Shown here in pieces: positions 2,444 to 27,146 of a stretch of DNA of 27,449 nucleotides. This DNA is from an uncultured Thiobacillus sp. Lineage in GTDB: Bacteria > Pseudomonadota > Gammaproteobacteria > Burkholderiales > Thiobacillaceae. The translations under genes and the position numbers were made by a program. How positions within the stretch are numbered: the first letter of the stretch is position 1; each line of letters opens with the position of its first letter. The stretch spans positions 1-27,449 of the forward strand of contig CAZVNY010000002.1 of the NCBI GenBank assembly GCA_964628785.1, in the 5' to 3' direction. Below the pieces are notes generated by a model that searched no databases, had not been told where the DNA came from, and worked only from the letters and a program-made list of their open reading frames with translations.

Positions 2444-3676
2444 CTAATTGCCTGCGCGCGCGGTCTCCTGCGCCGAGGCATCCATGGGTGCGGCAGCCAG
2501 GGTCTGCTGCATGTGTTCCAGCAGGCTCAGGGAAGGATAGCCGTCCGCCGGCAGGCCGTTCTGGCGCTGGTAGCTGCGGATGGCGGCCTTGGTCTGGCTG
2601 CCCAGCACCCCGTCGGTCTCACCCTGGTAGAGGCCCAGTTGCTTCAACTCCGCCTGCAGGGTCTGGGCTTCGGCCCGGGGGATGGGGCGGTTGTCGGCGC
2701 TGCGCCCATTTTGTATGCCTGGCAGGCCCACCAGCTGGTCTGCCAGCAAACCCACCGTCAGGGCGTAGTTGATGGAGCGGTTCCAGGTGAGCATGGCGTC
2801 GAAATTGCGATACACCAGGAAGGCCGGGCCAGCATGGCCCTGGGGCAGCAGGAGGCTGCCGCTGATGTGCTCCAGGGCCGGCAGGGGCTTGCCGTCCGCG
2901 CGGGTCACGCCCAGCCTGCGCCAGGCCGCCACGCTTTGCTTGACCTCCGGGCCGGCCAGGGCCAGGTCGAAGCCCTTGGACAGGCGTACCTCCCTGCCCC
3001 AGATCTCGCCGCTGCGCCAGCCCAGCTCATTCAGGTAGTTGGCGGCGGAGGCAAAGGCGTCCGGCAAGGACTGCCAGATGTCCTTGCGCCCGTCGCCATC
3101 CCCATCCACGGCATAACGCCGAAAGGTGCCGGGCATGAATTGCACCTGTCCCATGGCCCCCGCCCAGGACCCTCGCATGGCTTCGGGCGTGACATGACCG
3201 GCCTGCAGGATGTCCAGGGCATCCAGCAGCTGGCTGCGGAAGAAGCTGGCGCGACGATTGTCATAGGCCAGGGTGGCCAGGGCGGCAGGCACCGGGAAGT
3301 TACCCAGGAATTTGCCGTAATGGGTCTCCAGTCCCCAGAAGGCCACCAGCACATTGGCGGGGATGCCGTACTGGCGCGCGATGCGCTGCAGCAGCGTGCC
3401 GTGCACGCGCATCAGCCTGCGGCCTTCCGCGATGCGCTCCCGGGTGACGCGGCGATCCAGGTAATTGAGAAAGGTGTCGGTGAATTCGGGCTGGCGCTGG
3501 TCCAGTTCCAGGATCCGGGGAATGGGTTCGACCTGGCCCAGGGCCGCCTCCAGGATGTCCTGGCTCACCCCCCGGGCACCGGCCTCCTGGCGCAGCTGGG
3601 CCAGCCAGGTCTGAAAATCGGTGACAGGTGCATCGGCATGGCCCGCTACCGGCAACAGGAGGGACAGGCAGCACAA
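2444..3676 (-). CDS. Lytic murein transglycosylase (MltB/SLT_2 family) with C-terminal PG-binding domain; start uncertain
   Basis: Catalytic-Glu motif WGLETHYG, GSWAGAMGQVQFMPGTF, EF-hand-like DGDGDGRKD, YNRS-like WNRSINYA, C-terminal DGVLGSQTKAAIRSYQRQNGLPADG. Annotated start is TTG; see the finding on a possible ATC start at 3724. Confidence 0.9.
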   Translation of the reverse strand: MCCLSLLLPVAGHADAPVTDFQTWLAQLRQEAGARGVSQDILEAALGQVEPIPRILELDQRQPEFTDTFLNYLDRRVTRERIAEGRRLMRVHGTLLQRIARQYGIPANVLVAFWGLETHYGKFLGNFPVPAALATLAYDNRRASFFRSQLLDALDILQAGHVTPEAMRGSWAGAMGQVQFMPGTFRRYAVDGDGDGRKDIWQSLPDAFASAANYLNELGWRSGEIWGREVRLSKGFDLALAGPEVKQSVAAWRRLGVTRADGKPLPALEHISGSLLLPQGHAGPAFLVYRNFDAMLTWNRSINYALTVGLLADQLVGLPGIQNGRSADNRPIPRAEAQTLQAELKQLGLYQGETDGVLGSQTKAAIRSYQRQNGLPADGYPSLSLLEHMQQTLAAAPMDASAQETARAGN

Positions 3677-5894: not shown

Positions 5895-6101
5895 ACTCGG
5901 GGGTGCCTGTTGCTCTGAAGCTGCAATGGATTACTCAGCCATGGTAAAGGCATATCGACCCGGGAGGCAGCAAACCCGGGTAGTTTCACCCATGTGCCGC
6001 CCGGGCTGTGGTGGTCGGGCAGCATGCACAAGCCCATGGGCATGGGGATGGCTAAACTATGGCCAGTTGCTCTACCGATCCGTTTTTTTCAGGAAGACGA
6101 C

Positions 6102-7268
6102 ATGTCTCTATCGATGCGTATGGCTTGTGTTCTCGCCCTGCTTCTTACAGCAGGACCGGGCAACACTCTGGCTTCGCCTTCTGCAGCACCTGTCACAAGC
6201 TGCGGTCAGCGAGGGGACTGGATCATCCCCCAGGAGGGACAGGCCAGTACCGCCGACCCCACCCGCTTGCTGGCGGACCTGGCCCGGCGGCAGGTGGTGT
6301 TGCTGGGGGAGAGGCACGACAGCGCCGAGGATCATCGCTGGCAGCTGCATACCCTGGCCCGCCTCCAGGCCCATCAACCCAAGCTGGCCATTGCCCTGGA
6401 AATGCTGCCCCGACGCCTGCAAGGGGTGCTGGACCGCTGGGTGGCGGGAGAGCTGGGTGAGGCTGAATTCCTGACCCAGGTGGAATGGCGTCAGGTCTGG
6501 GGTTTTGATCCCGCCCTGTATCTGCCCCTGTTCCACTTTGCGCGCATGCATCGCCTGCCCCTGCTGGCGGTCAATGTGGAACGCAGCCTGGTGGACAGCG
6601 TGGGACGGGAGGGCTGGCAGCAGGTGCCGGAGGCACGACGGGAAGGGGTGGAGGTCCCGGCGCCCCCGGCAGCCGCCTATCTCGAGGAGTTGCGTCAGAT
6701 CTATGCCTATCACCCGGAACGCAGTCAGGAACCCGAGGCCTTCGCCCGTTTCGTGGAGGCCCAGACCGTTTGGGACCGGGCCATGGCCCAGGGCATGACG
6801 GATTATCTGCGTGCCCAGCCCGATGCCCTGGTGGTGGGCATCCTGGGGGCCGGACATGTGCGGCGCGGGCATGGGGTGGCGCATCAGCTCAAGGCCCTGG
6901 GGGTGGAACGGGTGGCCGGGCTCATGACCTGGGATACGCAGCATGGCTGTATGGGCATGCAGGCCGGCCTGGCGGATGCCCTCTTTCTCGAGCGTCCGCC
7001 GGCGGACGACCCACCCCGGTTGGGTATCGCCATGGGCATGGAGGGCGCTCGGGTGAAGGTCTCCGGGGTACAACCCGGCAGCGTGGCGGAGCAGGCGGGT
7101 CTGCAGGCGGGGGATCTGTTGCTGCAGATGGCGGGTCGGCCCGTCAAGAGCATGCAGGACGTGCGTGCTGTGGTGCAACGCCAGGCCCCGGGCACCTGGC
7201 TGCCCCTGCGGGTACAGCGTGACGGCCGGGAGCAGGAACTGGTGGCCCGCTTCCCCCTGGAGCCATGA
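6102..7268 (+). CDS. ChaN-like (EreA/ChaN/Tiki fold) exported protein with C-terminal PDZ domain
   Basis: AGGAAG RBS before ATG 6102, signal peptide, VVLLGERHD, LAIALEM, FVEAQTVWDRAMA and GAGHVRRGHGV motifs; PDZ RLGIAMG...VQPGSVAEQAGLQAGDLL. Confidence 0.8.
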   Translation: MSLSMRMACVLALLLTAGPGNTLASPSAAPVTSCGQRGDWIIPQEGQASTADPTRLLADLARRQVVLLGERHDSAEDHRWQLHTLARLQAHQPKLAIALEMLPRRLQGVLDRWVAGELGEAEFLTQVEWRQVWGFDPALYLPLFHFARMHRLPLLAVNVERSLVDSVGREGWQQVPEARREGVEVPAPPAAAYLEELRQIYAYHPERSQEPEAFARFVEAQTVWDRAMAQGMTDYLRAQPDALVVGILGAGHVRRGHGVAHQLKALGVERVAGLMTWDTQHGCMGMQAGLADALFLERPPADDPPRLGIAMGMEGARVKVSGVQPGSVAEQAGLQAGDLLLQMAGRPVKSMQDVRAVVQRQAPGTWLPLRVQRDGREQELVARFPLEP

Positions 7269-7404
7269 GCCTAAAAACCGCAGTGGATCGCGCAATTTTC
7301 TTACGGACATCGCATGCATGCTGAATTTTATGGCTTCACTCGCCGTCACCTGTTGGGTGGACCCGCTACGCAGCATCGGGCGCGTCCAACTGCGGTTTTT
7401 AGGC
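7269..7404. mobile_element. 136-bp MITE-like insertion with 16-bp perfect terminal inverted repeats and 3-bp TGA target duplication
   Basis: GCCTAAAAACCGCAGT (7269-7284) and ACTGCGGTTTTTAGGC (7389-7404) are exact reverse complements; flanked by TGA at 7266-7268 and 7405-7407; no transposase. Confidence 0.8.
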
Positions 7405-7406
7405 TG

Positions 7407-9401
7407 ATGCGTGCCTGGCTGTTCTGCCTACTCTGCCTGGGCAGCCCGTCCTTGCAGGCGGCCCATCTGGATCTGGACGTGAACCTGGACCCCGGCAGCC
7501 GGCGCCTGGTGTCCCGGGCAATCCTGGACCTGGACCCAGCACAAAACGGTTTCAGTCTTGCCCCCGGCCTGGTGGTGCACAAGGCCCTGCTGGATGGCAG
7601 GCCCTTGCAGCTGTCCCCGTCCAGATGGGAAGGGGGCCTGGCGCTGTATACATGGCCGTCAAGACCAGGCAAGAGCCGGCTGGAACTGCATTACAGCGGC
7701 CAACTGGCTTCCCTGGAGGCATTGGATCACCGCCAGGTGCTGGGTTGGCAGCCCCCCATGGCAGACCCCCAGGGCTCATATCTGCCCGCTGGCAGCGGCT
7801 GGTATCCCGACCCGGGCACGGTCTTCAGCTATCGCGTGCGTCTCAGCCTGCCTCCGGGACAAAAGGGGTTGGTGCCCGGCAATCCCCTGGATGAGACATC
7901 GGGTCCCAAGCGCTACGTGGCACGTTACGACTTTCCCCATGCCGCCCAAGGCATCGATCTCATGGCCGGGCCCTATGTGACCGCCGCACGCAATCTGGTC
8001 CTGCCCGGTGGCAAATCCGTACGCATACGCACCTGGTTCCATGCCGAGCTGGGAGATCTGGCGCAGACCTACCTGGCGGACAGCGCCCGTTACCTGGAGC
8101 GCTACAGCCGGCAAATCGGGGATTACCCCTTCAGCAGCTTCAGCGTAGTGTCCAGCCCCCTGCCCACGGGTTTCGGCATGCCTTCCCTCACCTATCTGGG
8201 CAGACAGGTGCTGCGTCTGCCCTTCATCCGGGCCACCTCCCTGGGCCACGAGGTGTTGCACAACTGGTGGGGCAATGGTGTGTATCCGGACTGGGAAAAG
8301 GGGAACTGGTCCGAAGGCCTGACCACTTTCATGGCGGATTACGCCTACAAGGAAGACGAATCCCCGGCCGCAGCCCGGGACCAGCGTCTGGCCTGGCTGC
8401 GGGACCTGGCGGCGGTACCCGTGGATGCGGACATGCCCCTGCAGGACTTCGTCAGCCGTCAGCATGGCATCTCCTCCATCGTGGGCTACAACAAGGCGGC
8501 CATGGTGTTTTTCATGCTGCGGGACCGGATCGGGGCCGAGGCCTTCGCGAAGGGCTTGCGCCTGTTGTGGCAGAGAAAGCGTTTCCAGACCGCCTCCTGG
8601 ATGGACCTGGAGGCCGTTTTCTCCGAGGCGTCGAGCCAGGATCTGGGGGCGTTTTTCGCGCAGTGGGTGTCCCGGCCAGGGGCGCCCCGGCTGCGCCTGG
8701 GCCAGGTGGTGCAACAGGGCAACACCCTCACGGTGCAGGCCCAGCAGGAGGAGGACTTCCATGTGCGTCTGCCCCTGGGCCTCATGGTCTACCCGGATGG
8801 CATCGAGACCCGGGTCATGGATCTGCAGGGCCCTGCAGGCACGGCCCGTTTCAATGTCCAGGGCCTGGTGCAGGCCGTGGAGCCGGACCCGGACTACCGT
8901 CTCTGGCGTCGCCTGGACCCGGCCTTGTTCCCCGCCATCCTGCGCGAGGTGTTTGCCGCTCCCAGGGTCAGCCTGGTGCTGGGGGAGGCCGACGCCGACT
9001 TCCAGGGCGCGGCCCGCAGCCTGGCGGCAGGCGTGCTGGACGTCGTCCCCACAGAGATCCGCACGGACAGCCCCCTGCCTCCGGGGGCCCTGCTCATCAT
9101 TGTGCCCCGGCAGCAGGCCCAAGCCCTGCTGGCGCGGCTGTCTCTGCCAGGCGTCCCCGGGGCCCTGGCCGATGCAGGCAGTGCCCGTGTATGGGCGGGG
9201 CGGGCTGCGCAAGGTCGGCCCTATGCTGTCATCGCCGCCCGGGACACAGCCAGTCTGCAGGCCCTGGGTCGAGGCCTGCCCCACTATGGTCGCCAGAGCT
9301 GGCTGCTGTTTGCCGACGGGCGGGTACTGGACAAGGGGGTGTGGCCGCCGCGACCCGAGCGTACCCGGGTCCTGCAACAGGGGACGCCGGTCCGGCCCTG
9401 A
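7407..9401 (+). CDS. M1-family zinc aminopeptidase-like exported protein
   Basis: Signal peptide MRAWLFCLLCLGSPSLQA; HEVLH...(18 aa)...E zinc motif (LGHEVLHNWWGNGVY...NWSEGLTTF); VGYNKAAMVFFML catalytic-Tyr motif. ATG 7407 preferred; the 7314 extension lies inside the MITE. Confidence 0.85.
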   Translation: MRAWLFCLLCLGSPSLQAAHLDLDVNLDPGSRRLVSRAILDLDPAQNGFSLAPGLVVHKALLDGRPLQLSPSRWEGGLALYTWPSRPGKSRLELHYSGQLASLEALDHRQVLGWQPPMADPQGSYLPAGSGWYPDPGTVFSYRVRLSLPPGQKGLVPGNPLDETSGPKRYVARYDFPHAAQGIDLMAGPYVTAARNLVLPGGKSVRIRTWFHAELGDLAQTYLADSARYLERYSRQIGDYPFSSFSVVSSPLPTGFGMPSLTYLGRQVLRLPFIRATSLGHEVLHNWWGNGVYPDWEKGNWSEGLTTFMADYAYKEDESPAAARDQRLAWLRDLAAVPVDADMPLQDFVSRQHGISSIVGYNKAAMVFFMLRDRIGAEAFAKGLRLLWQRKRFQTASWMDLEAVFSEASSQDLGAFFAQWVSRPGAPRLRLGQVVQQGNTLTVQAQQEEDFHVRLPLGLMVYPDGIETRVMDLQGPAGTARFNVQGLVQAVEPDPDYRLWRRLDPALFPAILREVFAAPRVSLVLGEADADFQGAARSLAAGVLDVVPTEIRTDSPLPPGALLIIVPRQQAQALLARLSLPGVPGALADAGSARVWAGRAAQGRPYAVIAARDTASLQALGRGLPHYGRQSWLLFADGRVLDKGVWPPRPERTRVLQQGTPVRP

Positions 9402-9882: not shown

Positions 9883-11850
9883 TCAGTCCTTGCTTTCGCT
9901 GGCGGACGGCGCGGACTTCGCCATCACCCGCTCCAGCAGGACATCGTCCAGCGCCTGGCCGGTGAAGCCATCCATGCCCAGTTCCCGCAGCTTTTCCATT
10001 TCTGCCCGGGACTCCACGCCTTCGGCCAGGACCTGCAGGCCGAGCTTGTGCGCCGTTTCCACCAGGCCCGCCAGGAAGGCCTGGTTGCCCGGATGCACAT
10101 GGATGTCCCGGATGAAGCTGGTATCCACCTTGATGAAATCCAGGCCCAGATCGTAGAAATCCCCGATGCGGCTGAACTGGTGACCGTAATGGGACAGGCC
10201 CAGATGGCAGTCCAGAGGCTGCCTGATGCGCACCAGTTCCCGCAGGCTGTCCAGGTACTGCAGGGCACCGATCTCCCGTACCTCCAGGCGCAACCGGCCC
10301 AGGTTCTTGCGACGCAACATGAGCAATTCCATGAGGCGGTCACGGAAGTCGGCGTCGGCCACGGAACGGGGCGAGAGGGTTACCCAGCGGGGTGTGGAAT
10401 TGGGGTCCATTTCCAGGGCATCCAGGGCCAGGGTGACGGCAGCCAGGTCCAGATCCGAGGCCATGCCCAGGCGCTCCGCCTGGGGCATGAAGCGATGGGC
10501 CGGCAACCATTCGGGACTGCCGGCCAAACGGATGCGCAGGTGGCATTCACACTGGGTCACTTCGTTCAGGAGCAGGGGATAACGCGCCAGGGTGAGATGA
10601 TCCGTGTGGGCCAGGACATGGCGCAGGGCAAGACGCCAGTCCTCGGTAGTGACGGGGGTGTTGCTCTGGTCGGAAGGCGAGGCCTCGCATACCGCGTCAT
10701 GGCCTGCACTCTCCGCCACGGCCACGGCCTGGTCGATGCGTGCCAGCAGGTCGGGCACCGGCTCACCTGGCTGGAAGGTGGCAAAGCCGATGTAGCTGGA
10801 GCCCATGCGCTCGGCATAGGGCTCCATGATTTCGGCCAGCTTGTCCTGCAGGATGTCCAGCACCGAGCGGGGGTCGCATTCCGAGGCCAGCAGCAGGGCA
10901 AAGTCCGCACCCTTCAGGCGGGCGGCAAAGATATCCGGGCACTCCGCGCCCATGGCACCCAGGGTCTGGCTCACCCGCACCAGCAGGCTGTCCGCCACCT
11001 CGCGTCCGAAATGGCGGTTGATATGCTCCAGGCGCGCCACCCGGATGATGGCCAGACTGCCACCGACGCTATCCTCATCCGCCAGGGTGCGGCTCAGGTT
11101 GGCCATGAAGAAGCTGCGGTTGGCCAGGCCGGTGAGGGTGTCGTAGTTGGCGGCCCGGCGCAGACCTTCGTAGTGCTGGGCATCCTCCTGCAATTCCTGT
11201 CGCAGACGGGACACCATGTCATTCATGGCCGCCGCCAATTCACGCAATTCCGGCAGGGCCGGTTCCGGGATGGTGGTGAAACGTCGCTCCCGTATGGCGT
11301 GGGCCTGATCGATGACGCTGCGGATGGGTTTGCGCAGACGGCCCAGGGCCAGGCTGCCCAGGCCACCGCCCAGGAGCCCGGCCAGCAACATGACCACACA
11401 CAGGGTGATGACGCCGGCCCACAGATCCCGGTAGGCGAAATGCGTATGGCTCATGAGGGACAGGGTGCCCACCTGTTGCCAGCCACTGCTGATCTGGGCC
11501 GTGCCGGGATTGGGCCGGATAGGCAACAGGCTCATGAACCAGCGTGGGGCCTCCGGCTCGGCTGGTGGCGCGATGCGCTCCACCAGGCTGCGGCCCTGGG
11601 GGTCGGTGATGAGGAGGTACTCGTACTGTCCGCTGTTGAACTGGGCGGTGATGGCCACCGCCAGGTCGTCCGCGGTCATCCCTTCCTGGCTCAGGGCCAG
11701 GGCCAGGGTGGCGGCGTTGTCCCGGTTCTTCAGGCTGAGTTGGGTTTCCAGATAGGCCCGGCCGTTGTACAGGGTCACGAACAGGCTGGCGACGAGGGCC
11801 AGCAGCATACTGGAAATGATGGACAACCAGACTTGACGGTAGAGGGACAT
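9883..11850 (-). CDS. lapD: LapD-type c-di-GMP receptor (periplasmic output domain, HAMP, degenerate GGDEF and EAL)
   Basis: MSLYRQVWL...QLSLKNRDNAATLAL N-terminus, GWQQ LapG-binding loop, HAMP (PELRELAAAMNDM), DTLTGLANR, degenerate GGDEF (RLKGADF), degenerate EAL (ECHLR, LSHYG, DFIKVD, AEGVE); RBS GGAGG upstream. Confidence 0.9.
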   Translation of the reverse strand: MSLYRQVWLSIISSMLLALVASLFVTLYNGRAYLETQLSLKNRDNAATLALALSQEGMTADDLAVAITAQFNSGQYEYLLITDPQGRSLVERIAPPAEPEAPRWFMSLLPIRPNPGTAQISSGWQQVGTLSLMSHTHFAYRDLWAGVITLCVVMLLAGLLGGGLGSLALGRLRKPIRSVIDQAHAIRERRFTTIPEPALPELRELAAAMNDMVSRLRQELQEDAQHYEGLRRAANYDTLTGLANRSFFMANLSRTLADEDSVGGSLAIIRVARLEHINRHFGREVADSLLVRVSQTLGAMGAECPDIFAARLKGADFALLLASECDPRSVLDILQDKLAEIMEPYAERMGSSYIGFATFQPGEPVPDLLARIDQAVAVAESAGHDAVCEASPSDQSNTPVTTEDWRLALRHVLAHTDHLTLARYPLLLNEVTQCECHLRIRLAGSPEWLPAHRFMPQAERLGMASDLDLAAVTLALDALEMDPNSTPRWVTLSPRSVADADFRDRLMELLMLRRKNLGRLRLEVREIGALQYLDSLRELVRIRQPLDCHLGLSHYGHQFSRIGDFYDLGLDFIKVDTSFIRDIHVHPGNQAFLAGLVETAHKLGLQVLAEGVESRAEMEKLRELGMDGFTGQALDDVLLERVMAKSAPSASESKD

Positions 11851-11859
11851 GGGGACCTC

Positions 11860-12990
11860 CTATTCGAATCCTTCCGCGCGGGCGCGCTGCACAGTTTTCT
11901 GCCACGCCGACAGGTTGTATGTGGACGCCTCGGGCTGGCTGGGCACGGACTGGCTGTTGAAACTGAACACCGGCCGCAGATCCTTGCGCTGGGAGGCAGG
12001 TTTGATTTCCGGCTCCCGGTCATCCAGCACCAGGGGATCGCCACCGGCCTTGGGATAGTAGGCCAGGACCATGTGCACCGGGTCCTTGCCACCTGGCTTC
12101 TCATCATCCCGGCGCACGTAGACCAGACGCAGCCGCTCGTTGGGGATATCCAGACTGAGGAGGCTGAAATATTTCGCCACGGCGATGTCCTTGCAGTCCC
12201 CCCGGCCGGCCCCCAGGGTTTCCCCGGGAGTGGCCCAGTAGTCAGCCTGACCCCAGGCCTGGCGGGTATCCGTGAACCTGACCCGCTGATTGACGTAGTC
12301 GTTGACGCCGGCCAGCTTGTTGGTCTCGTTCTGCTTGGCCAGGTTTTCCCGCAGGCGCTGCCACTGCCGGAAGACCTCGGCACCGGTACCGCCGTAGCGC
12401 CGGGTCAGCATGTTCTCGAACCTGCCCAGGTCCATGGCGTATACCAGGCGTACACTGGGACCGCCCCGCTCGGCCCACCATTTGTTCATGAAGCTGAGGA
12501 CCTGGCTTTTGCGTAACTGGCCGGGGATGAACATGACGATCTCCCCGGTGGGGTCATACAGGTAGGAGGTGGGGAAAAAATCCACCGGCCCCACCTGGCG
12601 ATAAGGGCTTTTGGTGTCCCGTCGGTTTCCCCCGGCCACCTGGGCCGCATATTCCAGGCCGTGGGAGGCCACGGCCTGGCGCACGCTGTCCACGTCATCG
12701 CCGTAGTCCAGGCTGATGCCGATGACCACCAGATCGTCCCGCTTGTTGAGGTTGTTCAGGGTGGGAATGCCCAGGCGGCACATGGGACACCAGTGGGCCC
12801 AGAAGTTCACCAACACCCATTTGCCGCGAAAGTCCTCGAGCCGCAGGGTGCGTCCCTGCAGATCCACGAAGCGGAAGGGGATGGCCTTTTTTCCCCCACT
12901 GACGGCAAAAGACGGTGTCACTCCCAGGCCTGTGACCAGCAACAGGCAGATCAGGGACAGCGCAAGAAAGATGGGGCGGGGGCGCTGCAT
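11860..12990 (-). CDS. lapG: Fusion: signal peptide + TlpA/ResA-like thioredoxin (CxxC) + LapG-type transglutaminase-like cysteine protease
   Basis: Single open frame: MQRPRPIFLALSLICLLLV (signal), FRGKWVLVNFWAHWCPMC...VIGISLD...FFPTSYLYDPTG (TlpA), then VNDYVNQRVRFTD...WGQADYWATPGETLGAGRGDCKDIAVAKYFSL...LRLVYV...HMVLAYY...PLVLDD...RKDLRPVFSFN (peptidase C93). Confidence 0.88.
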   Translation of the reverse strand: MQRPRPIFLALSLICLLLVTGLGVTPSFAVSGGKKAIPFRFVDLQGRTLRLEDFRGKWVLVNFWAHWCPMCRLGIPTLNNLNKRDDLVVIGISLDYGDDVDSVRQAVASHGLEYAAQVAGGNRRDTKSPYRQVGPVDFFPTSYLYDPTGEIVMFIPGQLRKSQVLSFMNKWWAERGGPSVRLVYAMDLGRFENMLTRRYGGTGAEVFRQWQRLRENLAKQNETNKLAGVNDYVNQRVRFTDTRQAWGQADYWATPGETLGAGRGDCKDIAVAKYFSLLSLDIPNERLRLVYVRRDDEKPGGKDPVHMVLAYYPKAGGDPLVLDDREPEIKPASQRKDLRPVFSFNSQSVPSQPEASTYNLSAWQKTVQRARAEGFE

Positions 12991-13096
12991 GAGTAACGGT
13001 AGCGAACCGCTGCTTGCCTCGGATGATGGGAGCTTAAGCGGCAAAGCTGCCTGGGTCAAAGCGTTGGCCCCCAGTGGCGCGGGCGTTGGCTTAAAT

Positions 13097-13211
13097 CCGT
13101 CATCGCGCGCAGCGAAGCCACGTGGCGATCCAGAAGTTATTGATTTCGTATGGATTCTGGCTTGCCGCGCTGCGTGCGCAATGATGGCAATGGATTCGTT
13201 CGGCGTTTCCT
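13097..13211. repeat. Palindromic repeat copy A (91-bp hairpin core 13097-13187 plus 24-bp arm)
   Basis: Core CCGTCATCGCG...CGCAATGATGG matches the core at 22079-22169 at 77 of 91 positions by manual alignment. Confidence 0.8.
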
Positions 13212-13225
13212 CAGGGCGTACAAAC

Positions 13226-13251
13226 AAAAAACCGGGCAGTGCCCGGTTTTT
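13226..13251 (-). terminator. Rho-independent terminator downstream of prkB (potentially bidirectional)
   Basis: AAAAAA-CCGGGC-AGT-GCCCGG-TTTTT; on the minus strand the stem is followed by TTTTTTGTTTG, about 30 bp after the prk stop. Confidence 0.8.
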
Positions 13252-13281
13252 CAATGCTGCCAGGTTGCTTTGTGTAGCGTT

Positions 13282-14169
13282 CTATTGTCTGGAGTTGGCC
13301 ACCAGTTCCTGGATCCGCGGCTCCAGGATCAGCTCCATGGCAAAACCCATCTTGCCGCCGGGGACCACGATGTTGTTGCGCCGGGACATGAAGGAGTTGG
13401 GGATCATGTTCAGCAGATAGGGGAAGTCCACCCCCTTGGGATCACGGAAGCGGATGATGATGAAACTCTCGTCCGGAGTGGGTATGTCCCGGGCGATGAA
13501 GGGGTTGGAGGTGTCCACCGTGGGCACCCGCTGGAAGTTGATGTCCGTCAGGGAGAACTGGGGCGTGATGTAGTTCACGTAGTCGGGCATGCGGCGCAGG
13601 ATGGTGTCCACGATCACCTCGGCGGAGTAGCCCCGCTCGGCGCCGTCCCGGTGGATCTTCTGGATCCACTCCAGGTTCACCACCGGCACCACGCCGATGG
13701 CCAGGTCCACGTACTGGGCCATGTTGACCTTGTCGGTCACCACCATGCCGTGCAGGCCTTCGTAGAACAAGAGATCGGTGCCTGTGGGGATGTCTTCCCA
13801 GGGGGTGAACTCGCCGGGCATCAGGTTGGTACCCAGGCGGGCGTTGAGGGCAGCGGCCTCTTCGTCACTGTGGATGTAATAACGCTTCTTGCCGCCCCCG
13901 GTCTTGCCGTAGGTCTCGAAGATGCTGGCCAGGCCGGCGAAGTCATTGGCCTCCGGGCCGAAGTGGGAGAAGTGCTTGTTGCCCTCGGTCTCGGCCTTTT
14001 GCATGGCCTCCTTGAAGTCCGCACGTCCCAGGCAATGCATGCTGTCGCCCTCGATGACGGCGGCAGTCAGGTTCTCGCGCTTGAAGATGTGCTCGAAGGC
14101 ACGCTTGACGGTGGTGGTGCCGGCGCCGGACGAACCGGTCACCACGACGACGGGGTGTTTCTTGGACAT
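13282..14169 (-). CDS. prkB: Phosphoribulokinase (proteobacterial type, CbbP/PrkB)
   Basis: MSKKHPVVVVTGSSGAGTTTVK P-loop variant, IEGDSMH, FSHFGPEAN, LLFYEGLHG, PVVNLEWIQKIHRD, INFQRVPTVDTSNPFIAR. Confidence 0.95.
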   Translation of the reverse strand: MSKKHPVVVVTGSSGAGTTTVKRAFEHIFKRENLTAAVIEGDSMHCLGRADFKEAMQKAETEGNKHFSHFGPEANDFAGLASIFETYGKTGGGKKRYYIHSDEEAAALNARLGTNLMPGEFTPWEDIPTGTDLLFYEGLHGMVVTDKVNMAQYVDLAIGVVPVVNLEWIQKIHRDGAERGYSAEVIVDTILRRMPDYVNYITPQFSLTDINFQRVPTVDTSNPFIARDIPTPDESFIIIRFRDPKGVDFPYLLNMIPNSFMSRRNNIVVPGGKMGFAMELILEPRIQELVANSRQ

Positions 14170-22211: not shown

Positions 22212-25200
22212 TCAGTCTTGCAGCCCGGCGTAAACCCCCTGGTCGCGCTCCGGGTAACTTTCATACACATGCTCGAACACGGCGGAGCATTTCTGCTTGA
22301 ACAACTCGGGCGTGTAGGCCCGGGGCAGGCCCGTGTCCAGGGTGTCTTCTATGGCCAGCTTCAGCTGTGAGCGTGCCGAGGCCTTCCCACGCCAGTTCAA
22401 CACCAGCAGGGACTGCAAGCTGGCCAGCAGCGCCCTGGCAACCTTCCTGACTGCATCCCGCTCGGCGGGCGTGAGCTCCGGCGCGGGCCGGGTCAGGATG
22501 TCGAAAATCACCAACTCTTCCTCGCTCAGGTTCTCCCGCACATGGCGCTGCTCCTCCTCGTTCAGGCTGTGGGAGAGGGCCAGCAGCGCGTTGTACAGGA
22601 CCTCGATGCTGGCGCTGCCGGCGTTGTAGTTTTCGATCAGGACCTCGAATTTCTGCAGAAAATCGGTGCGTGTGCGGTTCAGCCGGAGCAGCCTTTCCAG
22701 CTGGCCGCGGACCGCGGTCTTGAGCACTGCGAGCGCGGTGTTCTTGTGCTTTGCTGCCTTGAAGCGGCTGGCCAGGGCCTGGAAGTCGATCTTCGAGAGG
22801 TCCAGGGCCGGGGGTGATTCCACCCGCATGGCATGGCCGGTGATGGATGCATCGAGCAAGGCGTTGACCTGGCCCATTACCCGGGAGATGTCCCGCAGGT
22901 TTGACGGCAATTTGGCGCGGATGGTCCCGGCCAGTGTGCCCAGACAGGCCACCCGACTGGCGAATTCCAGTGCCACCGGGTCCGGTTTCACGGCGGCATG
23001 AAGGGTGTTCACCCGTCTCTCGTGGCCGAGGAAGTCGCGCCGCAGGCTGTCGGGGGCGATCAGTGTGTCGATGGCGTCCTCCAGCGCTGCCAGACGCTCC
23101 ATGCTGCTCTCCGGTGTTGCCTCGATCTCCTCCAGCCGCACCTGATGTTCGGCGCAGAATGCCGTGGCATCGGCCAACGCCTGCCGGAGTTCCTGCACCA
23201 GTTGCTGTTTGTCCCGGACCGGGGTGAGTCCATTCCTGCCCGCGCCATAGATGGCCAGCGCCTTCTCCAGCGAGGCAAAGACGTTGGCATAGTCCACGAT
23301 CACGCCGCTGTGCTTGCCGGGAAACACCCGGTTGGCCCGGGCAATGGTCTGCATCAGGGTGTGGTTGCGCATGGGCTTGTCGAGATAGATCGTCGCGCAG
23401 CTGGGTGCGTCAAAGCCAGTCAGCCACATGGCACACACGAATACCAGGCGCAGCGGGTCGTCCACGTCCTTGAACTTCTCATCCAGGCCCGGCTGGGACT
23501 GATTCATGCGCTGGCGGTGGGGCCGGATGTCCAGGCCCAGGGCCTGCATGTGGGCGATTTCGTTCTGCCCCGGCGATACGATGAGCGCCATGTCGGTGCT
23601 GCGCAGCACGTCCAGGCGTGCTTTCAGTTCCGCCCTGCGGGCGTCCCGACGGGCCTGCCCGGGACTGCCCTCGCCACCGGGGGTGTAGGCCAGCCTGCCC
23701 AGTTCCTGCTCGGTGCTTGCGATCTCCGTCGTCCAGTGCCCGCGCACCTTGTCGTGCATCTTCAGCGCCGTGGCCTTGTCGATGGATACCACCATGGCCT
23801 TGCCCACCACCCGGCCCAGGCTCGCACGCCCCAGGAAGTGGTGCACGATGTCCGCCGCTACCGTCTCCAGGCGGTCGTCCCGGGTGATGAGGTGGTATTG
23901 CCGGCCCAGTGTCTTCTCCAGCCTTTCCTCCTGGGCCTCGTCCAGACCGGCGTCTTCGATCAGGCGGTAGATGTCCTCGTTGAGGTCCGGGTTGACCAGC
24001 GCCAGCTCCGGGGTGCGGTTCTCGTAGAACAGGGGCACGGTGGCGCCGTCCTCCACCGACTGCTGGAAGTCGTAGATGGACACGTAGTCGCCAAACACCT
24101 CCCGGGTGCGCTCCTCGCCGGCGATCAGGGGCGTGCCGGTGAAGGCCAGGAACATGGCCCGGGGCAGGGCCGTGCGCATGTTCAAGGCCAACAGGTCGTA
24201 CTGGCTGCGATGGGCTTCATCCGTGAGCACGATGACATCGGTGCGCTCGGTGAGCAGTTCGGGCTTCTGGAACTTGTGGATCAGGGTAAACACATAGCGA
24301 TGATTGCCGCGCAGCAGCTCGCGCAGGTGGCTGCCGCTTCTGGCATGGCAGGTGTCGCTCTCCGCCTTGCTCACCGCGCCCACGTCCTTGAAGGTCTTGG
24401 CGATCTGCTCGTCCAGCTCCACCCGGTCGGTGATCACCACGAAGGTCCAGTTGCCCCTCAGCCGGCGCAGCACCTTCTGCGCAAAGAACACCATGGAAAA
24501 GCTCTTGCCGCTGCCCTGGGTTTGCCAGAACACGCCGCCGCGGCCATGGCCCCTCTCCCGGGCTTGCAGCATGGAGGCAATGGCATTGTTCACCCCCAGA
24601 TACTGGTGGTTCTGCGCCAGCACCTTCACCAGCCCCGTCTTGTGCTCGGAAAACAGGGTGAAGTTCTCCACCAGATCCAGCAGCCGTGTCTTTTCGCAGG
24701 TGCCGCGCAGCATCACCTCCAGGGACACGCGGCACGGTTCGTCCTCGCGCTGCACGCGTTTCCACTCGAAGAAGCGCTCCCAGTCGGCACTCAGGGAGCC
24801 CACGCGGCTGTCCGTGCCATTGCTGGCGATGAGCAGGGCGTTGTAGGAGAACAGCTGGGGGATTGCCTGCTTGTAGTGGGTTAGGTTGTCGTCGAACGCC
24901 GTGCGCGCCGGCACGCCGGGCTTCTTCAGCTCGATCACCACCCAGGGCAGGCCGTTGACGAAGCCCACCAGGTCCGGCCGGCAGGTGTACAGGCTGCCCA
25001 CCAGCGTGAACTGGCTCACCAGCAGGAAGTCGTTGTTCTGCGGCTGCTCCCAGTCCACCACCTGCAGGCGCTCGACCTTCTGGCCGCCATGCACGGGGTC
25101 GGGCACCGAGACGGCAATGCCGTCCTTCAGCAGCCCATAGATCTCGCGGTTGGCCGCCACCGGGTCCATGGCCGAGCGGTCGCGCAACAGCTCGTCCATG

Positions 25201-25421
25201 GCGGTCTGGATGGCCGCAGGCGGCAGGCCGGGGTTCAGGCGGGTGAGGGCGGCACGCAGGCGGTTGCCCAGCACCACTTCGCCCTTGGTCTCACGCCCCA
25301 GGGTGGCATCCCTGCCCAGGGTTTCCTCCAGTGCCGAGGCGGTCTGCCAGCCGAGTTCCGCGAACAGCGCGATGGCGGGCTGCTCGACGAGCTGGTCTTC
25401 ACTCCAGGCGTGGGGGCTCAA
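22212..25421 (-). CDS. hsdR: Type I restriction enzyme R subunit
   Basis: Nuclease motif RPDLVGFVNGLPWVVIELKK, Walker A QTQGSGKS, DEAH, FTGTP, MWLTGFDAP, QTIARANR. Likely TTG start at 25421 (MSPHAWSEDQLVEQPAI) overlapping the DUF4411 stop. Confidence 0.95.
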   Translation of the reverse strand: MSPHAWSEDQLVEQPAIALFAELGWQTASALEETLGRDATLGRETKGEVVLGNRLRAALTRLNPGLPPAAIQTAMDELLRDRSAMDPVAANREIYGLLKDGIAVSVPDPVHGGQKVERLQVVDWEQPQNNDFLLVSQFTLVGSLYTCRPDLVGFVNGLPWVVIELKKPGVPARTAFDDNLTHYKQAIPQLFSYNALLIASNGTDSRVGSLSADWERFFEWKRVQREDEPCRVSLEVMLRGTCEKTRLLDLVENFTLFSEHKTGLVKVLAQNHQYLGVNNAIASMLQARERGHGRGGVFWQTQGSGKSFSMVFFAQKVLRRLRGNWTFVVITDRVELDEQIAKTFKDVGAVSKAESDTCHARSGSHLRELLRGNHRYVFTLIHKFQKPELLTERTDVIVLTDEAHRSQYDLLALNMRTALPRAMFLAFTGTPLIAGEERTREVFGDYVSIYDFQQSVEDGATVPLFYENRTPELALVNPDLNEDIYRLIEDAGLDEAQEERLEKTLGRQYHLITRDDRLETVAADIVHHFLGRASLGRVVGKAMVVSIDKATALKMHDKVRGHWTTEIASTEQELGRLAYTPGGEGSPGQARRDARRAELKARLDVLRSTDMALIVSPGQNEIAHMQALGLDIRPHRQRMNQSQPGLDEKFKDVDDPLRLVFVCAMWLTGFDAPSCATIYLDKPMRNHTLMQTIARANRVFPGKHSGVIVDYANVFASLEKALAIYGAGRNGLTPVRDKQQLVQELRQALADATAFCAEHQVRLEEIEATPESSMERLAALEDAIDTLIAPDSLRRDFLGHERRVNTLHAAVKPDPVALEFASRVACLGTLAGTIRAKLPSNLRDISRVMGQVNALLDASITGHAMRVESPPALDLSKIDFQALASRFKAAKHKNTALAVLKTAVRGQLERLLRLNRTRTDFLQKFEVLIENYNAGSASIEVLYNALLALSHSLNEEEQRHVRENLSEEELVIFDILTRPAPELTPAERDAVRKVARALLASLQSLLVLNWRGKASARSQLKLAIEDTLDTGLPRAYTPELFKQKCSAVFEHVYESYPERDQGVYAGLQD

Positions 25422-25837
25422 GGAGATACTGCTCCAAGGATGAATCGAGTTTTCTCGATTCTCAGCATCTGATATGGCGTCATGAACTGCACTCCCAGGC
25501 CGATGCATGCATTGGGAATCTTGATACGTGCTCTGGAATCGGAAACTACCTCAAGCGTAACGATCACATGGTCACCTGCCAACGCATGGGCAAGGAGATA
25601 GAAATCGGCCGCCTGAAAAAAGGTATTGATGGCGGCCGGCGTGTACTGCTGGCCGTTCGCCCACTCCGAGAGCTTGTCATTGCCGGCCCTGATCTCGTCT
25701 GCGACCTTGTCGATGCTGAAGACTGCTCCCGTGTTTGCAGCGTGGATCAGCCAGTCCCGGTACCCTGGGCAGAAATCCATTCCATAGTGACGGTTGCTGG
25801 CATCGATGAGAACGTTGGCATCGAGCAGATAGCTCAT
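25418..25837 (-). CDS. DUF4411-family PIN-like protein, apparently shortened by an internal in-frame deletion
   Basis: YLLDANVLI...HYGMDFCPG...SIDKVADEI...AADFYLLAHA...KIPNAC.GLGV.FMTPYQML motifs; only 139 aa; ATGA overlap with the upstream gene. Confidence 0.8.
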   Translation of the reverse strand: MSYLLDANVLIDASNRHYGMDFCPGYRDWLIHAANTGAVFSIDKVADEIRAGNDKLSEWANGQQYTPAAINTFFQAADFYLLAHALAGDHVIVTLEVVSDSRARIKIPNACIGLGVQFMTPYQMLRIEKTRFILGAVSP

Positions 25838-26991
25838 GTCGTCACCCCGAGCTGTCGCGCTGCTGCATTGAATGTCGAGGTCTTGCGTATCCCCAGAAGC
25901 TGAAATGCCTCGGTAAAGGGCGTGCTTCCCTCCAGCGTGCTGGCGATGATCGCTCGTACAAAGCGGCGACCGGCCCGCATGCCGAGGGTGCGATAGAAAT
26001 CGCCACCAGTAGCGCCCTGACGACGGTCGAGTTTTTTCAGTCGTTCCAGTTCTCCGCGATAGTGGCTCCATAACTGCTCCCGATCGATCAGGCCGGTATC
26101 GAACAGGCGGCGTAACGCAACCAGGCTGCTGACCTTGAATGCGCGCGCCAGGCGTTGCATGGCCTCGGCGATCGGCTCGCCGGGTCGATGAACTGCTTCC
26201 AACTGCTCTGCCGGTACCAGCAGTTCGGCGGCAACCTGGTTGCACCAGCGTTCGGTTTCCTGCGGGGGCACTCGTCCCGCTTGCACATCCGATACTCCGC
26301 TCGCCCCCAGCCACAGGTGGGCTAGTTCATGAGCCAGCGTGAACATCTGGGCAGCCTTGCTGTCTGCTGCGTTCACGAAAACCAGCGGGGCCAGGTCATC
26401 CACCAGGGCGAAACCGCGAAACTCCCCCACATCCAGCTTGCGATGACTGTTGCTGCCCACGATGGAACTGGCCATCACCAGCACTCCGGCTTCCTGTGCC
26501 TGCATCATCAGGAGGCGCAACGCATCGGTCCAGGTGCCCAGTGCGCGACGTTGCTCGACGGAAAACCCGATGGTGTCGCGTATCTCGCGCGCCACCGCTT
26601 CGTGCGCATCGCCGACACGAGCGCTCCCTACGAATGGCAACGACGTTTCGCCAGATTGTCGAAGATATCCCCGGTACCAATCCTGCCGCTGCTGACACAG
26701 GTAGATCGTATCGAGAAGGTCGCTGCTCGGACCTGTCAGCGTCCGCTCGCCCACCGTCCGGAAATCCGACACCGGCAGCTCCAGCACGGGCGGCTGGGGC
26801 AGAAAGAAGTAGCCCATGGCCGTGTGGGTGCGCCCGGCAAATGCCTCGAGCTGCCGCAGGGTCGGTTGCGCTTCCTCAGTCAGCCAGAGCGGCCATTTCG
26901 GGAAATGGCGCCGAAGGTCATCGTCGGAAAGTCGGGCACGCTCCGCAGCCCAGCGCAGAACCGGAACGGACACTGTCACGGTGTTGCTCAT
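25834..26991 (-). CDS. HTH + ImmA/IrrE-family zinc metallopeptidase (peptidase M78)
   Basis: N-terminal XRE-like region (VLRWAAERAR...QPTLRQLEAFA...GYFFL), EFRGFAL, VFVNAADSKAAQMFTLAHELAHLWLG (HExxH), ERWCNQVAAELLVP. Confidence 0.9.
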   Translation of the reverse strand: MSNTVTVSVPVLRWAAERARLSDDDLRRHFPKWPLWLTEEAQPTLRQLEAFAGRTHTAMGYFFLPQPPVLELPVSDFRTVGERTLTGPSSDLLDTIYLCQQRQDWYRGYLRQSGETSLPFVGSARVGDAHEAVAREIRDTIGFSVEQRRALGTWTDALRLLMMQAQEAGVLVMASSIVGSNSHRKLDVGEFRGFALVDDLAPLVFVNAADSKAAQMFTLAHELAHLWLGASGVSDVQAGRVPPQETERWCNQVAAELLVPAEQLEAVHRPGEPIAEAMQRLARAFKVSSLVALRRLFDTGLIDREQLWSHYRGELERLKKLDRRQGATGGDFYRTLGMRAGRRFVRAIIASTLEGSTPFTEAFQLLGIRKTSTFNAAARQLGVTT

Positions 26992-27146
26992 GTTTCTGCT
27001 CTCGCGTCGTCGGTGCGCAGACATGCTGTCGCCTGTTTCCGGATGACACGACAGCAACGCTTCCTGCGCATCATCCGTGAAGTGGCGTCAAGCCTTTGGG
27101 TGTTGGCTGCTTCCGGCATGTCAGGTTCAGGCGATAGAGCCATACC

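Follow-up and report, generated by a model that had tools for sequence, protein, structure and literature searches.

LapD and LapG are the textbook case of a cytoplasmic second messenger, cyclic diguanylate (c-di-GMP), controlling a periplasmic enzyme, and to our knowledge every characterised output of this switch is proteolysis. The defining activity of LapG is cleavage of the N-terminal retention module of a LapA-like type I secretion system (T1SS) adhesin at a (T/A/P)AAG site. Here we describe a gene from an uncultured Thiobacillus sp. (assembly GCA_964628785.1, contig CAZVNY010000002.1) that encodes a thioredoxin-fold (Trx) domain fused to a LapG-like domain and lies next to lapD; the window analysed is the 27,449-nucleotide stretch of that contig that contains it. 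As in the LapG/LapD systems of Pseudomonas fluorescens and Legionella pneumophila (4u65, 4fgo; PMC3032545, PMC3032553, PMC4359373), the fusion has the BTLCP fold (36% identity to P. fluorescens LapG) and a signal peptide, lies directly upstream of a LapD_MoxY_N-HAMP-GGDEF-EAL LapD with a Gly-Trp loop, and keeps the PVxSFN strand that contacts LapD, the triad His and Asp, and most of the acidic residues of the Ca2+ site. It differs from those systems in its additional N-terminal CxxC domain, in belonging to a family without the Cys nucleophile, in having no adjacent adhesin or T1SS genes, in failing, like its partner, to reach the equivalog cutoffs of NCBIfam for LapG and LapD, and in the GWQP or GWKR loops of most partner LapDs.

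A lineage-specific N-terminal addition on a LapG-type protein, working with a divergent c-di-GMP receptor, has its nearest precedent in DvhG/DvhD of Desulfovibrio vulgaris (PMC13090378, PMC10990149). There, however, the addition is a transmembrane helix with a disordered linker of ~180 residues and no redox domain, DvhG keeps a strict C-H-D triad with D-C-E and is a demonstrated Ca2+-dependent protease, and the receptor is a dCache/PAS/HD-GYP protein rather than a LapD. The N-terminal domain of the fusion shares the Trx fold, the WCPxC site and the cis-Pro-Thr with ResA, TlpA and CcmG (DsbE), its best matches being ResA (4nmu, 1st9), TlpA (1jfu) and CcmG (1kng), but is set apart from them by its fusion to a LapG-like domain, by reaching no equivalog cutoff and by a gene context without cytochrome c or Cu-maturation genes. 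Escherichia coli DsbG and DsbC are periplasmic Trx-fold reductases that protect single-Cys enzymes, and a comparable service to a single catalytic Cys is conceivable in the protein of the window, which has a Cys at the nucleophile position. DsbG and DsbC are nevertheless V-shaped homodimers with a dimerisation domain that act in trans, their homology to the fusion is limited to the Trx fold, and 119 of the 121 members of the fusion family have no such Cys to protect.

Neither a Trx-LapG fusion nor a nucleophile-less LapG/BTLCP protein is described in the literature that full-text searches returned. In a first-pass annotation, made by a model from the sequence alone, the architecture was likewise given as not known from characterised Lap systems. 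A mention of Thiobacillus in PMC3032553 concerns an unrelated EAL protein. The architecture, the nucleophile loss and the reversion described below thus appear unreported, although the sequences themselves are not new, since databases already list the fusion proteins under generic names ('redoxin domain-containing protein', 'transglutaminase-like cysteine peptidase').

One gene for a thioredoxin-fold domain and a LapG-like domain

The fusion is encoded by an unbroken minus-strand open reading frame (ORF) from an ATG at 12990 to a TAG at 11860-11862, and neither the ORF list nor the translation contains an internal stop, a second signal peptide or an internal ribosome-binding site in this frame. 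By inspection, the N-terminus (MQRPRPIFLALSLICLLLVTGLGVTPSFA, followed by VSG) has the n-, h- and c-regions typical of a Sec signal peptide. A lipoprotein anchored through C15 was rejected as unlikely, since the sequence lacks a lipobox and the family does not conserve this Cys. Pfam identifies AhpC-TSA/Redoxin at residues 33-165 (E 8e-14; AhpC-TSA 52 bits, cutoff 26; Redoxin 40 bits, cutoff 26.6) and Peptidase_C93 (PF06035) at residues 218-333 (E 2e-12; 47.5 bits, gathering cutoff 27). Sequence searches of the PDB align residues 32-170 with ResA (4nmu, E 6e-16), with TlpA also matched, and residues 192-375 with P. fluorescens LapG of the LapD-LapG complex (4u65_E, E 2e-34), with L. pneumophila LapG (4fgo) as a further match. 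An AlphaFold2 (AF2) model from 64 homologues (mean predicted local distance difference test score, pLDDT, 84.9; predicted template modelling score, pTM, 0.61) comprises two confident domains joined by a weaker linker at residues 175-187, with a helix at residues 6-22 and, after this helix, a low-pLDDT segment at 25-34. Foldseek searches with this model gave TM-scores on the target of 0.86 for LapG and about 0.77 for ResA.

These ORF, Pfam, PDB and AF2 results bear out the single frame with signal peptide, TlpA/ResA-like domain, linker and LapG/C93 domain proposed in the first-pass annotation. The translation likewise places the motifs that it had listed, namely NFWAHWCPMC at residues 62-71 (WCPMC at 67-71), FFPT at 138-141, the linker WWAERGGPSVRLVYAMD at 171-187 and the triad residues. 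Its further description of the protease as complete holds for C266, H306 and D323, which are present, but not for the Ca2+ motif, which reads D-C-K-D instead of the canonical D-C-E-D. The mature protein contains exactly three Cys.

Neither domain reaches the cutoff of a named NCBIfam equivalog. The fusion scores 160.7 bits against the NCBIfam model for the cysteine protease LapG (NF045674, cutoff 320), and the Trx domain, which NCBIfam groups with ResA/TlpA/DsbE-like reductases, stays far below the cutoffs for ResA (71 against 170), TlpA (48 against 230) and DsbE (40 against 123), so that no named equivalog (ResA, TlpA, DsbE/CcmG, StoA) is reached. A peroxiredoxin (AhpC/TSA sensu stricto) was ruled out because the site is WCPMC and the best sequence and structure matches are ResA, TlpA and CcmG. 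No DsbC/DsbG family or structure occurs among the Pfam, PDB, NCBIfam and Foldseek matches of the fusion. A longer, TTG-initiated ORF reaching 13254 was also rejected, because homologues of ~376 residues align from residue 1 and the extension crosses the terminator region of prk, the phosphoribulokinase gene upstream.

Contigs from metagenomes and a metatranscriptome show that the gene is real and transcribed. Sequencing runs of wastewater or activated sludge, at least 10 of them and drawn from several studies, contain the stretch in nearly identical form, and positions 11700-13300 are spanned by single contigs in three independent DNA studies, with no indel and no variant at the domain junction or the Cys codon. 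The sole difference over these 1.6 kb is 12652 T>G (E113D, in the Trx domain), which is present in all four runs examined; D is also found at this position in protein cluster P0001. Metatranscriptome contigs cover 12200-13007, including the junction, and 11724-11886, across the boundary between the fusion and lapD, and eight related loci have the same continuous fusion frame. The mis-assembly or missed stop near 12430-12500 that the first-pass annotation had proposed to look for is absent from both the DNA contigs and the RNA contigs that span the region.

A compact clade in which the fusion is paired with lapD

Homologues were taken as the best 120 matches from a search of 5.8 billion proteins and aligned with the query (121 clusters). 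All 120 are full-length fusions of ~376 residues, with identities from 100% down to 44%, and nearly all have both Pfam domains; the possibility raised at first, that close relatives always encode two separate genes, is not what these matches show. The sources are Thiobacillaceae, Thiobacillus, Hydrogenophilales and betaproteobacterial metagenome-assembled genomes (MAGs). In an exhaustive HMMER search of representatives at 50% identity, a single full-length fusion was recovered (P0011) and all other matches were single-domain, which indicates that the fusion forms one compact clade. These searches, of the kind proposed in the first-pass annotation, place the fusion of Trx and Peptidase_C93 in one Thiobacillaceae/Hydrogenophilales-like clade of more than 120 protein clusters. 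The clade is abundant among sulfur-oxidising denitrifiers of wastewater and activated sludge.

The fusion and lapD are a conserved two-gene cassette, carried for example by the MAGs GCA_035356765.1, GCA_016703155.1, GCA_024235835.1 and GCA_040752475.1. lapD follows directly in 10 of 10 relatives with downstream DNA, with a spacer of 2-15 nt, and the cassette occurs in at least three different neighbourhoods: next to prk/queD as in the window, next to a type I-E CRISPR-Cas locus, and next to slyX/V-ATPase-I-like genes. In the window the TAG of the fusion overlaps the AGGAGG Shine-Dalgarno sequence of lapD, whose ATG lies at 11850, 9 nt beyond the stop. Since prk is followed by a terminator-like hairpin, the fusion and lapD probably form a separate transcription unit. 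No sigma-70 consensus in a promoter scan and no Rfam match were found in the presumed promoter region (12991-13226).

The window LapD resembles a c-di-GMP receptor in its sequence motifs. It scores 384 bits against the NCBIfam LapD model (cutoff 1020); by eye its GGDEF motif is degenerate (KGADF) and the metal-binding DDFG of its EAL domain reads SHYG, motifs that would fit a receptor and not an enzyme. In described systems the Trp of the GWxQ loop of LapD docks into LapG (PMC3032553, PMC4359373), and the Gln of this loop has been called 'strictly conserved' (PMC3032553). The spacing of 9 bp between the fusion and lapD and the intact GWQQ loop, both noted in the first-pass annotation, are upheld by the sequence and Pfam. 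The Gly-Trp of the loop is retained in 10 of 10 fusion partners. The LapDs of the window, L001 and L084 read GWQQ or GWRQ. The Gln is retained in the window's subclade and also in LapDs partnered with standalone LapGs; it is replaced by Pro (GWQP) in six partners (L002, L003, L004, L006, L085, and L086) and by Arg (GWKR) in L083.

Loss of the nucleophile and conservation of the cleft

The position of the catalytic Cys is occupied in the 121 fusion clusters by Ser (97), Gly (15), Ala (5), Cys (2), Val (1) and Asp (1). Cys is found only in the query and in the query's own 90% cluster (P0001), and the remaining 119 clusters are Cys-less, whereas 114 of 116 standalone LapGs (98%) from the representative search have Cys. 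The two Cys-less standalone LapG-like proteins outside the fusion clade (P0173 and P0204, with DGED and DSED) indicate that nucleophile loss is not wholly confined to it. To place the fused domains among other LapGs we constructed a neighbour-joining tree from 239 LapG domains. In it the fused domains are monophyletic and sister to a set of Cys-bearing standalone LapGs, and eight Cys-less sister groups branch off in succession before the query is reached. Fitch parsimony assigns Ser as the ancestral state of the fused clade, with ~17 changes at the nucleophile site. The codon is AGC (Ser) in eight of eight relatives (51-74% identity) and TGC in the window, a difference of one A-to-T change. 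This nested position and the single-base distance from AGC indicate that the triad of the window protein is a lineage-specific reversion at a site that the family has relaxed. Identity between a non-Ser lineage and the closest Ser relative is 64-75% in most cases, and within one Gly clade it is 67-80%; by these sequence distances the Gly and Ala lineages are old rather than recent offshoots.

The rest of the LapG-like domain is under clear constraint. With the exception of the nucleophile and one Gly, the fused clade conserves every column that is at least 85% conserved in standalone LapGs. The shared columns (P. fluorescens numbering) are N99, N103, W115, D119, W121, P124, E126, G133, D134, D137, K142, Y143, L146, R157, Y160, H170, D187, R199, L202, P204, S207, F208 and W233, and at least 25 invariant or near-invariant positions are common to the fusions and genuine LapGs. 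The conserved PVxSFN strand contains the positions of V205 and Y206, which served for crosslinking LapG to LapD (PMC4359373). Across the family the triad His is kept in 89% and the Asp in 98% of clusters. Gly variants retain D265, E267, D268, H306 and D323 at frequencies of 0.93, 0.87, 0.93, 0.93 and 1.00, respectively, and Ser variants at 0.95, 0.87, 0.97, 0.92 and 0.97, indicating that selection on the cleft is independent of the nucleophile. Such a pattern would be expected of a binding module or natural substrate trap and not of a protease. In this respect the fusions resemble pseudoenzymes, with small residues in place of the nucleophile and a conserved binding cleft, and they would bind without cleaving.

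The Ca2+ site is altered in the lineage of the window. LapG and DvhG are active only with the Cys and with the Ca2+ motif that flanks it, D-C-E (D-x-E), and the D316A/E318A and C317A mutants of DvhG are inactive (PMC13090378). The Glu of this motif is present in 101 of 121 clusters, and Lys, Arg or Gly takes its place in the window's subclade. The window protein reads D265-C266-K267-D268, with Lys in the position of the Ca2+-ligand Glu; its closest relatives read D-S-R-D (P0002) and D-S-G-D (P0003), and the rest of the family D-S-E-D. Protease activity of the window protein is therefore uncertain, and judging from these residues it may or may not have regained activity as a thiol protease. It is conceivable, as speculation, that a Lys or Arg side chain substitutes for the Ca2+ cation.

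Conservation of the CxxC domain and its standalone relatives

The redox site is nearly invariant throughout the fusion alignment: C68 and the cis-Pro P140 are present in 121 of 121 clusters, and P69 and C71 in 120 each. Mean pairwise identity is 0.68 for the Trx domain and 0.57 for the LapG-like domain. Related MAGs also encode standalone homologues of the Trx domain, with identities of 57-64%. In four contigs (L087 4823-6513, L088 1819-3656, L089, and L090) the genes of two such proteins, ~60% identical (P0122 and P0123), follow a YeeE/YedE-type gene for a sulfur-compound transporter (PF04143) at a distance of ~40-85 nt and lie beside queE/queC-like genes, an adjacency that fits periplasmic sulfur or thiol chemistry and that we regard as a lead only. 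Hydrogenophilales MAGs contain a standalone Trx protein with 64% identity (L008 2757-3443, with an upstream gene at 1167-2408; L007 4850-5518). The upstream gene in L008 encodes a 413-residue multi-pass membrane protein with an N-terminal CPHC motif and an NPC motif; inspection by eye suggests a DsbD/CcdA-like protein, but neither Pfam nor NCBIfam gives a match, and we make no claim for it.

Possible functions of the fusion protein

The reading that we favour, with a probability of roughly 45%, is that LapD, in response to c-di-GMP, sequesters or releases a CxxC oxidoreductase, with the LapG-like domain supplying docking to LapD and recognition of the target. At high c-di-GMP, LapD would capture the LapG-like domain through the conserved Gly-Trp loop and hold the fusion at the inner membrane, and at low c-di-GMP the fusion would be set free. 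The nucleophile-less cleft of the freed protein would then bind a LapG-type target, like a natural substrate trap, and the tethered CxxC would carry out thiol-disulfide (or persulfide/thiosulfonate) chemistry on or near it. In such a system c-di-GMP would gate a periplasmic reductase, rather than redox state gating a protease. The window protein would be the exception, as an AGC to TGC change recreates Cys-His-Asp in a site where the Ca2+-ligand Glu is Lys. For the fusion we infer LapD binding, absence of proteolysis, reductase activity, an electron source and a target.

A redox-active module has thus been added to a Lap-type switch, as the first-pass annotation suggested: the architecture exists, is conserved and transcribed, and has as its partner a LapD that looks intact. 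The further proposal of that annotation, that the output would hinge on the reducing power of the periplasm, survives in modified form as part of the reading that we prefer. We put forward tentatively the wider claim that, in a clade of sulfur-oxidising Betaproteobacteria, inside-out signalling through LapD has been rewired to a CxxC oxidoreductase with LapG as a docking or trap module, that release or modification of surface proteins is reductive and not proteolytic, and that the lineage of the window secondarily recreated Cys-His-Asp.

Several observations weigh against the favoured reading. Adhesin, T1SS and DsbD/CcdA genes are absent from the window and from within 10 kb in 10 related loci, which leaves the proposed oxidoreductase with no target nearby. 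T1SS adhesins are usually poor in Cys, so a disulfide in an adhesin is not an obvious substrate. The replacement of the loop Gln by Pro or Arg in most fusion-partner LapDs means that the LapD interface may differ. The neighbour-joining tree is a simple one that carries no support values. Finally, with Ser in 80% of clusters and the His and Asp retained, a working Ser-His-Asp site is possible.

This last point is the core of an alternative that we consider unlikely, in which the fusions are active Ser-His-Asp proteases that evolved against thiol poisoning in a sulfur-rich periplasm, with the Trx domain as an accessory, for example in substrate preparation. The prevalence and ancestral status of Ser, the retention of His and Asp and the D/E/D residues of the Ca2+ site all speak for it. 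However, Gly, Ala, Val or Asp has replaced the Ser in 22 of 121 clusters through ~16 independent changes, including old and diversified lineages that retain the rest of the active site just as often. A true nucleophile would not be so dispensable, as its near-universal retention in standalone LapGs illustrates. Cys-to-Ser swaps in enzymes of the papain/transglutaminase fold also normally abolish activity, which counts against a Ser-dependent LapG.

More doubtful still is the model of the first-pass annotation, now applicable to the lineage of the window alone, in which an active Cys-His-Asp protease has its C266 kept reduced, or its sulfenylation or persulfidation reversed, by the CxxC, so that adhesin release needs both low c-di-GMP and periplasmic reducing power. 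C266, H306 and D323 are in place, the Cys codon is fixed in independent assemblies, the remaining LapG residue set is intact, the mature protein has just the two Cys of the CxxC and C266, and the organism resembles a sulfur-oxidising autotroph (prk, Thiobacillaceae relatives) whose periplasmic thiols would be at risk. Against this, the fusion predates the Cys and the Cys-less relatives have all the same kept the CxxC, the Ca2+-ligand Glu is Lys in a motif whose D/E-to-A mutants are inactive in DvhG (PMC13090378), the site tolerates Ser, Gly, Ala, Val and Asp and so may hold Cys near-neutrally too, and no adhesin or T1SS lies nearby. For the family as a whole, guarding of the LapG catalytic Cys as the reason for the fusion is not supported: since the family lacks a catalytic thiol, its ancestral residue being Ser, and the fusion is older than the Cys of the window, thiol guarding cannot explain it.

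There is a small chance that the two domains are uncoupled. The protein would then be a periplasmic reductase of general use, serving sulfur metabolism or the maturation of cytochrome c or Cu proteins, that by chance became attached to a LapG remnant in decay, and the adjacency of lapD would be a relic. The standalone Trx homologues that adjoin YeeE/YedE-type genes and not lap genes are consistent with such a role. The LapG-like domain is nevertheless under clear purifying selection at the positions it shares with genuine LapGs, and the pairing with lapD persists at short spacing across unrelated neighbourhoods, with the LapD Trp kept. An artefact joining two genes is refuted by the DNA and RNA contigs that cross the junction without indel or variant and by the more than 120 homologues and eight related loci with the same architecture.

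Locus features and neighbouring genes

The positions of the elements of the locus are given in Table 1.

Table 1 Coordinates of the fusion gene, lapD and associated elements in the window
Feature	Coordinates	Strand	Description
lapD	9883..11850	minus	LapD_MoxY_N periplasmic domain, HAMP, degenerate GGDEF, EAL (Pfam)
LapD GWQQ loop with LapG-anchoring Trp	11473..11484	minus	G123-W124-Q125-Q126
Stop codon and 9-nt spacer with AGGAGG Shine-Dalgarno of lapD	11851..11865	minus	TAGGAGGTCCCCATG; translational coupling
Fusion coding sequence	11860..12990	minus	376 aa + stop; signal peptide, Trx-fold CxxC domain, linker, LapG-like BTLCP domain
LapG-type BTLCP domain	11863..12429	minus	aa 188-376
Triad residue D323	12022..12024	minus	
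Triad residue H306	12073..12075	minus	
Nucleophile C266 and K267	12190..12195	minus	C266, TGC, 12193-12195; K267, 12190-12192
Interdomain linker	12430..12468	minus	aa 175-187; variable in family; pLDDT about 70
ResA/TlpA/DsbE-like thioredoxin-fold domain	12469..12894	minus	aa 33-174
cis-Pro P140 of Trx fold (FFPT)	12571..12573	minus	aligns with Pro-Thr of ResA
CxxC active site C68-P-M-C71	12778..12789	minus	
Predicted Sec signal peptide	12907..12990	minus	aa 1-28, cleavage after SFA; sequence inspection
Upstream non-coding region, presumed promoter of fusion-lapD unit	12991..13226	minus	between prk terminator-like hairpin and start codon
Terminator-like perfect 12-bp hairpin and T-run	13227..13251	minus	downstream of prk

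Phosphoribulokinase (prk, 13282-14169, minus) is encoded immediately upstream of the cassette, and NapA/NapB genes are present in a syntenic relative, a Thiobacillaceae MAG (L081 1-1850). Together these genes fit a Calvin-cycle autotrophic, nitrate-reducing, Thiobacillus-like organism. In three metagenomes the assembler depth of the intergenic segment 13088-13142, upstream of the fusion, is ~9-fold that of the adjoining sequence, and many 31-mer contigs terminate in this segment, which is single copy in the window and has no Rfam match. It is probably a multi-copy intergenic repeat of the organism or community, similar to repetitive extragenic palindromic (REP) elements.

At the start of the window, an ExeA-like AAA ATPase with a peptidoglycan-binding domain (59-1684, plus) is followed by a GspB-like protein of the type II secretion system (1687-2433, plus) and, on the opposite strand, a lytic transglycosylase (SLT_2 and PG_binding; 2444-3676, minus). 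A ChaN/Tiki-type haem-binding domain fused to PDZ (5994-7268, plus) is followed by an M1-family peptidase (7314-9401, plus), and both genes are syntenic in L081. The other end of the window holds a small defence or toxin-antitoxin-like island, with the R subunit of a type I restriction enzyme (HsdR; 22212-25508, minus) and DUF4411 and IrrE/Peptidase_M78 proteins (25418-26314 and 25834-27057, both minus).

Implications for c-di-GMP signalling and pseudoenzyme evolution

For annotation, homology alone is an insufficient basis for naming these fusions active LapG cysteine proteases. The clade is a natural experiment in pseudoenzyme evolution, in which Cys gave way to Ser, Gly or Ala and was regained once, together with loss of the Ca2+ ligand; if this is true, the lineage of the window and its relatives would be a before-and-after pair for the loss and regain of a cysteine protease. 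The biofilm and floc behaviour of sulfur-oxidising denitrifiers in wastewater, among which the clade is found, matters in practice. The clade suggests that the receptor that controls proteolysis in the characterised systems may here gate thiol-disulfide exchange, with LapG as an adaptor only, and if so the repertoire of inside-out signalling would be wider than is known.

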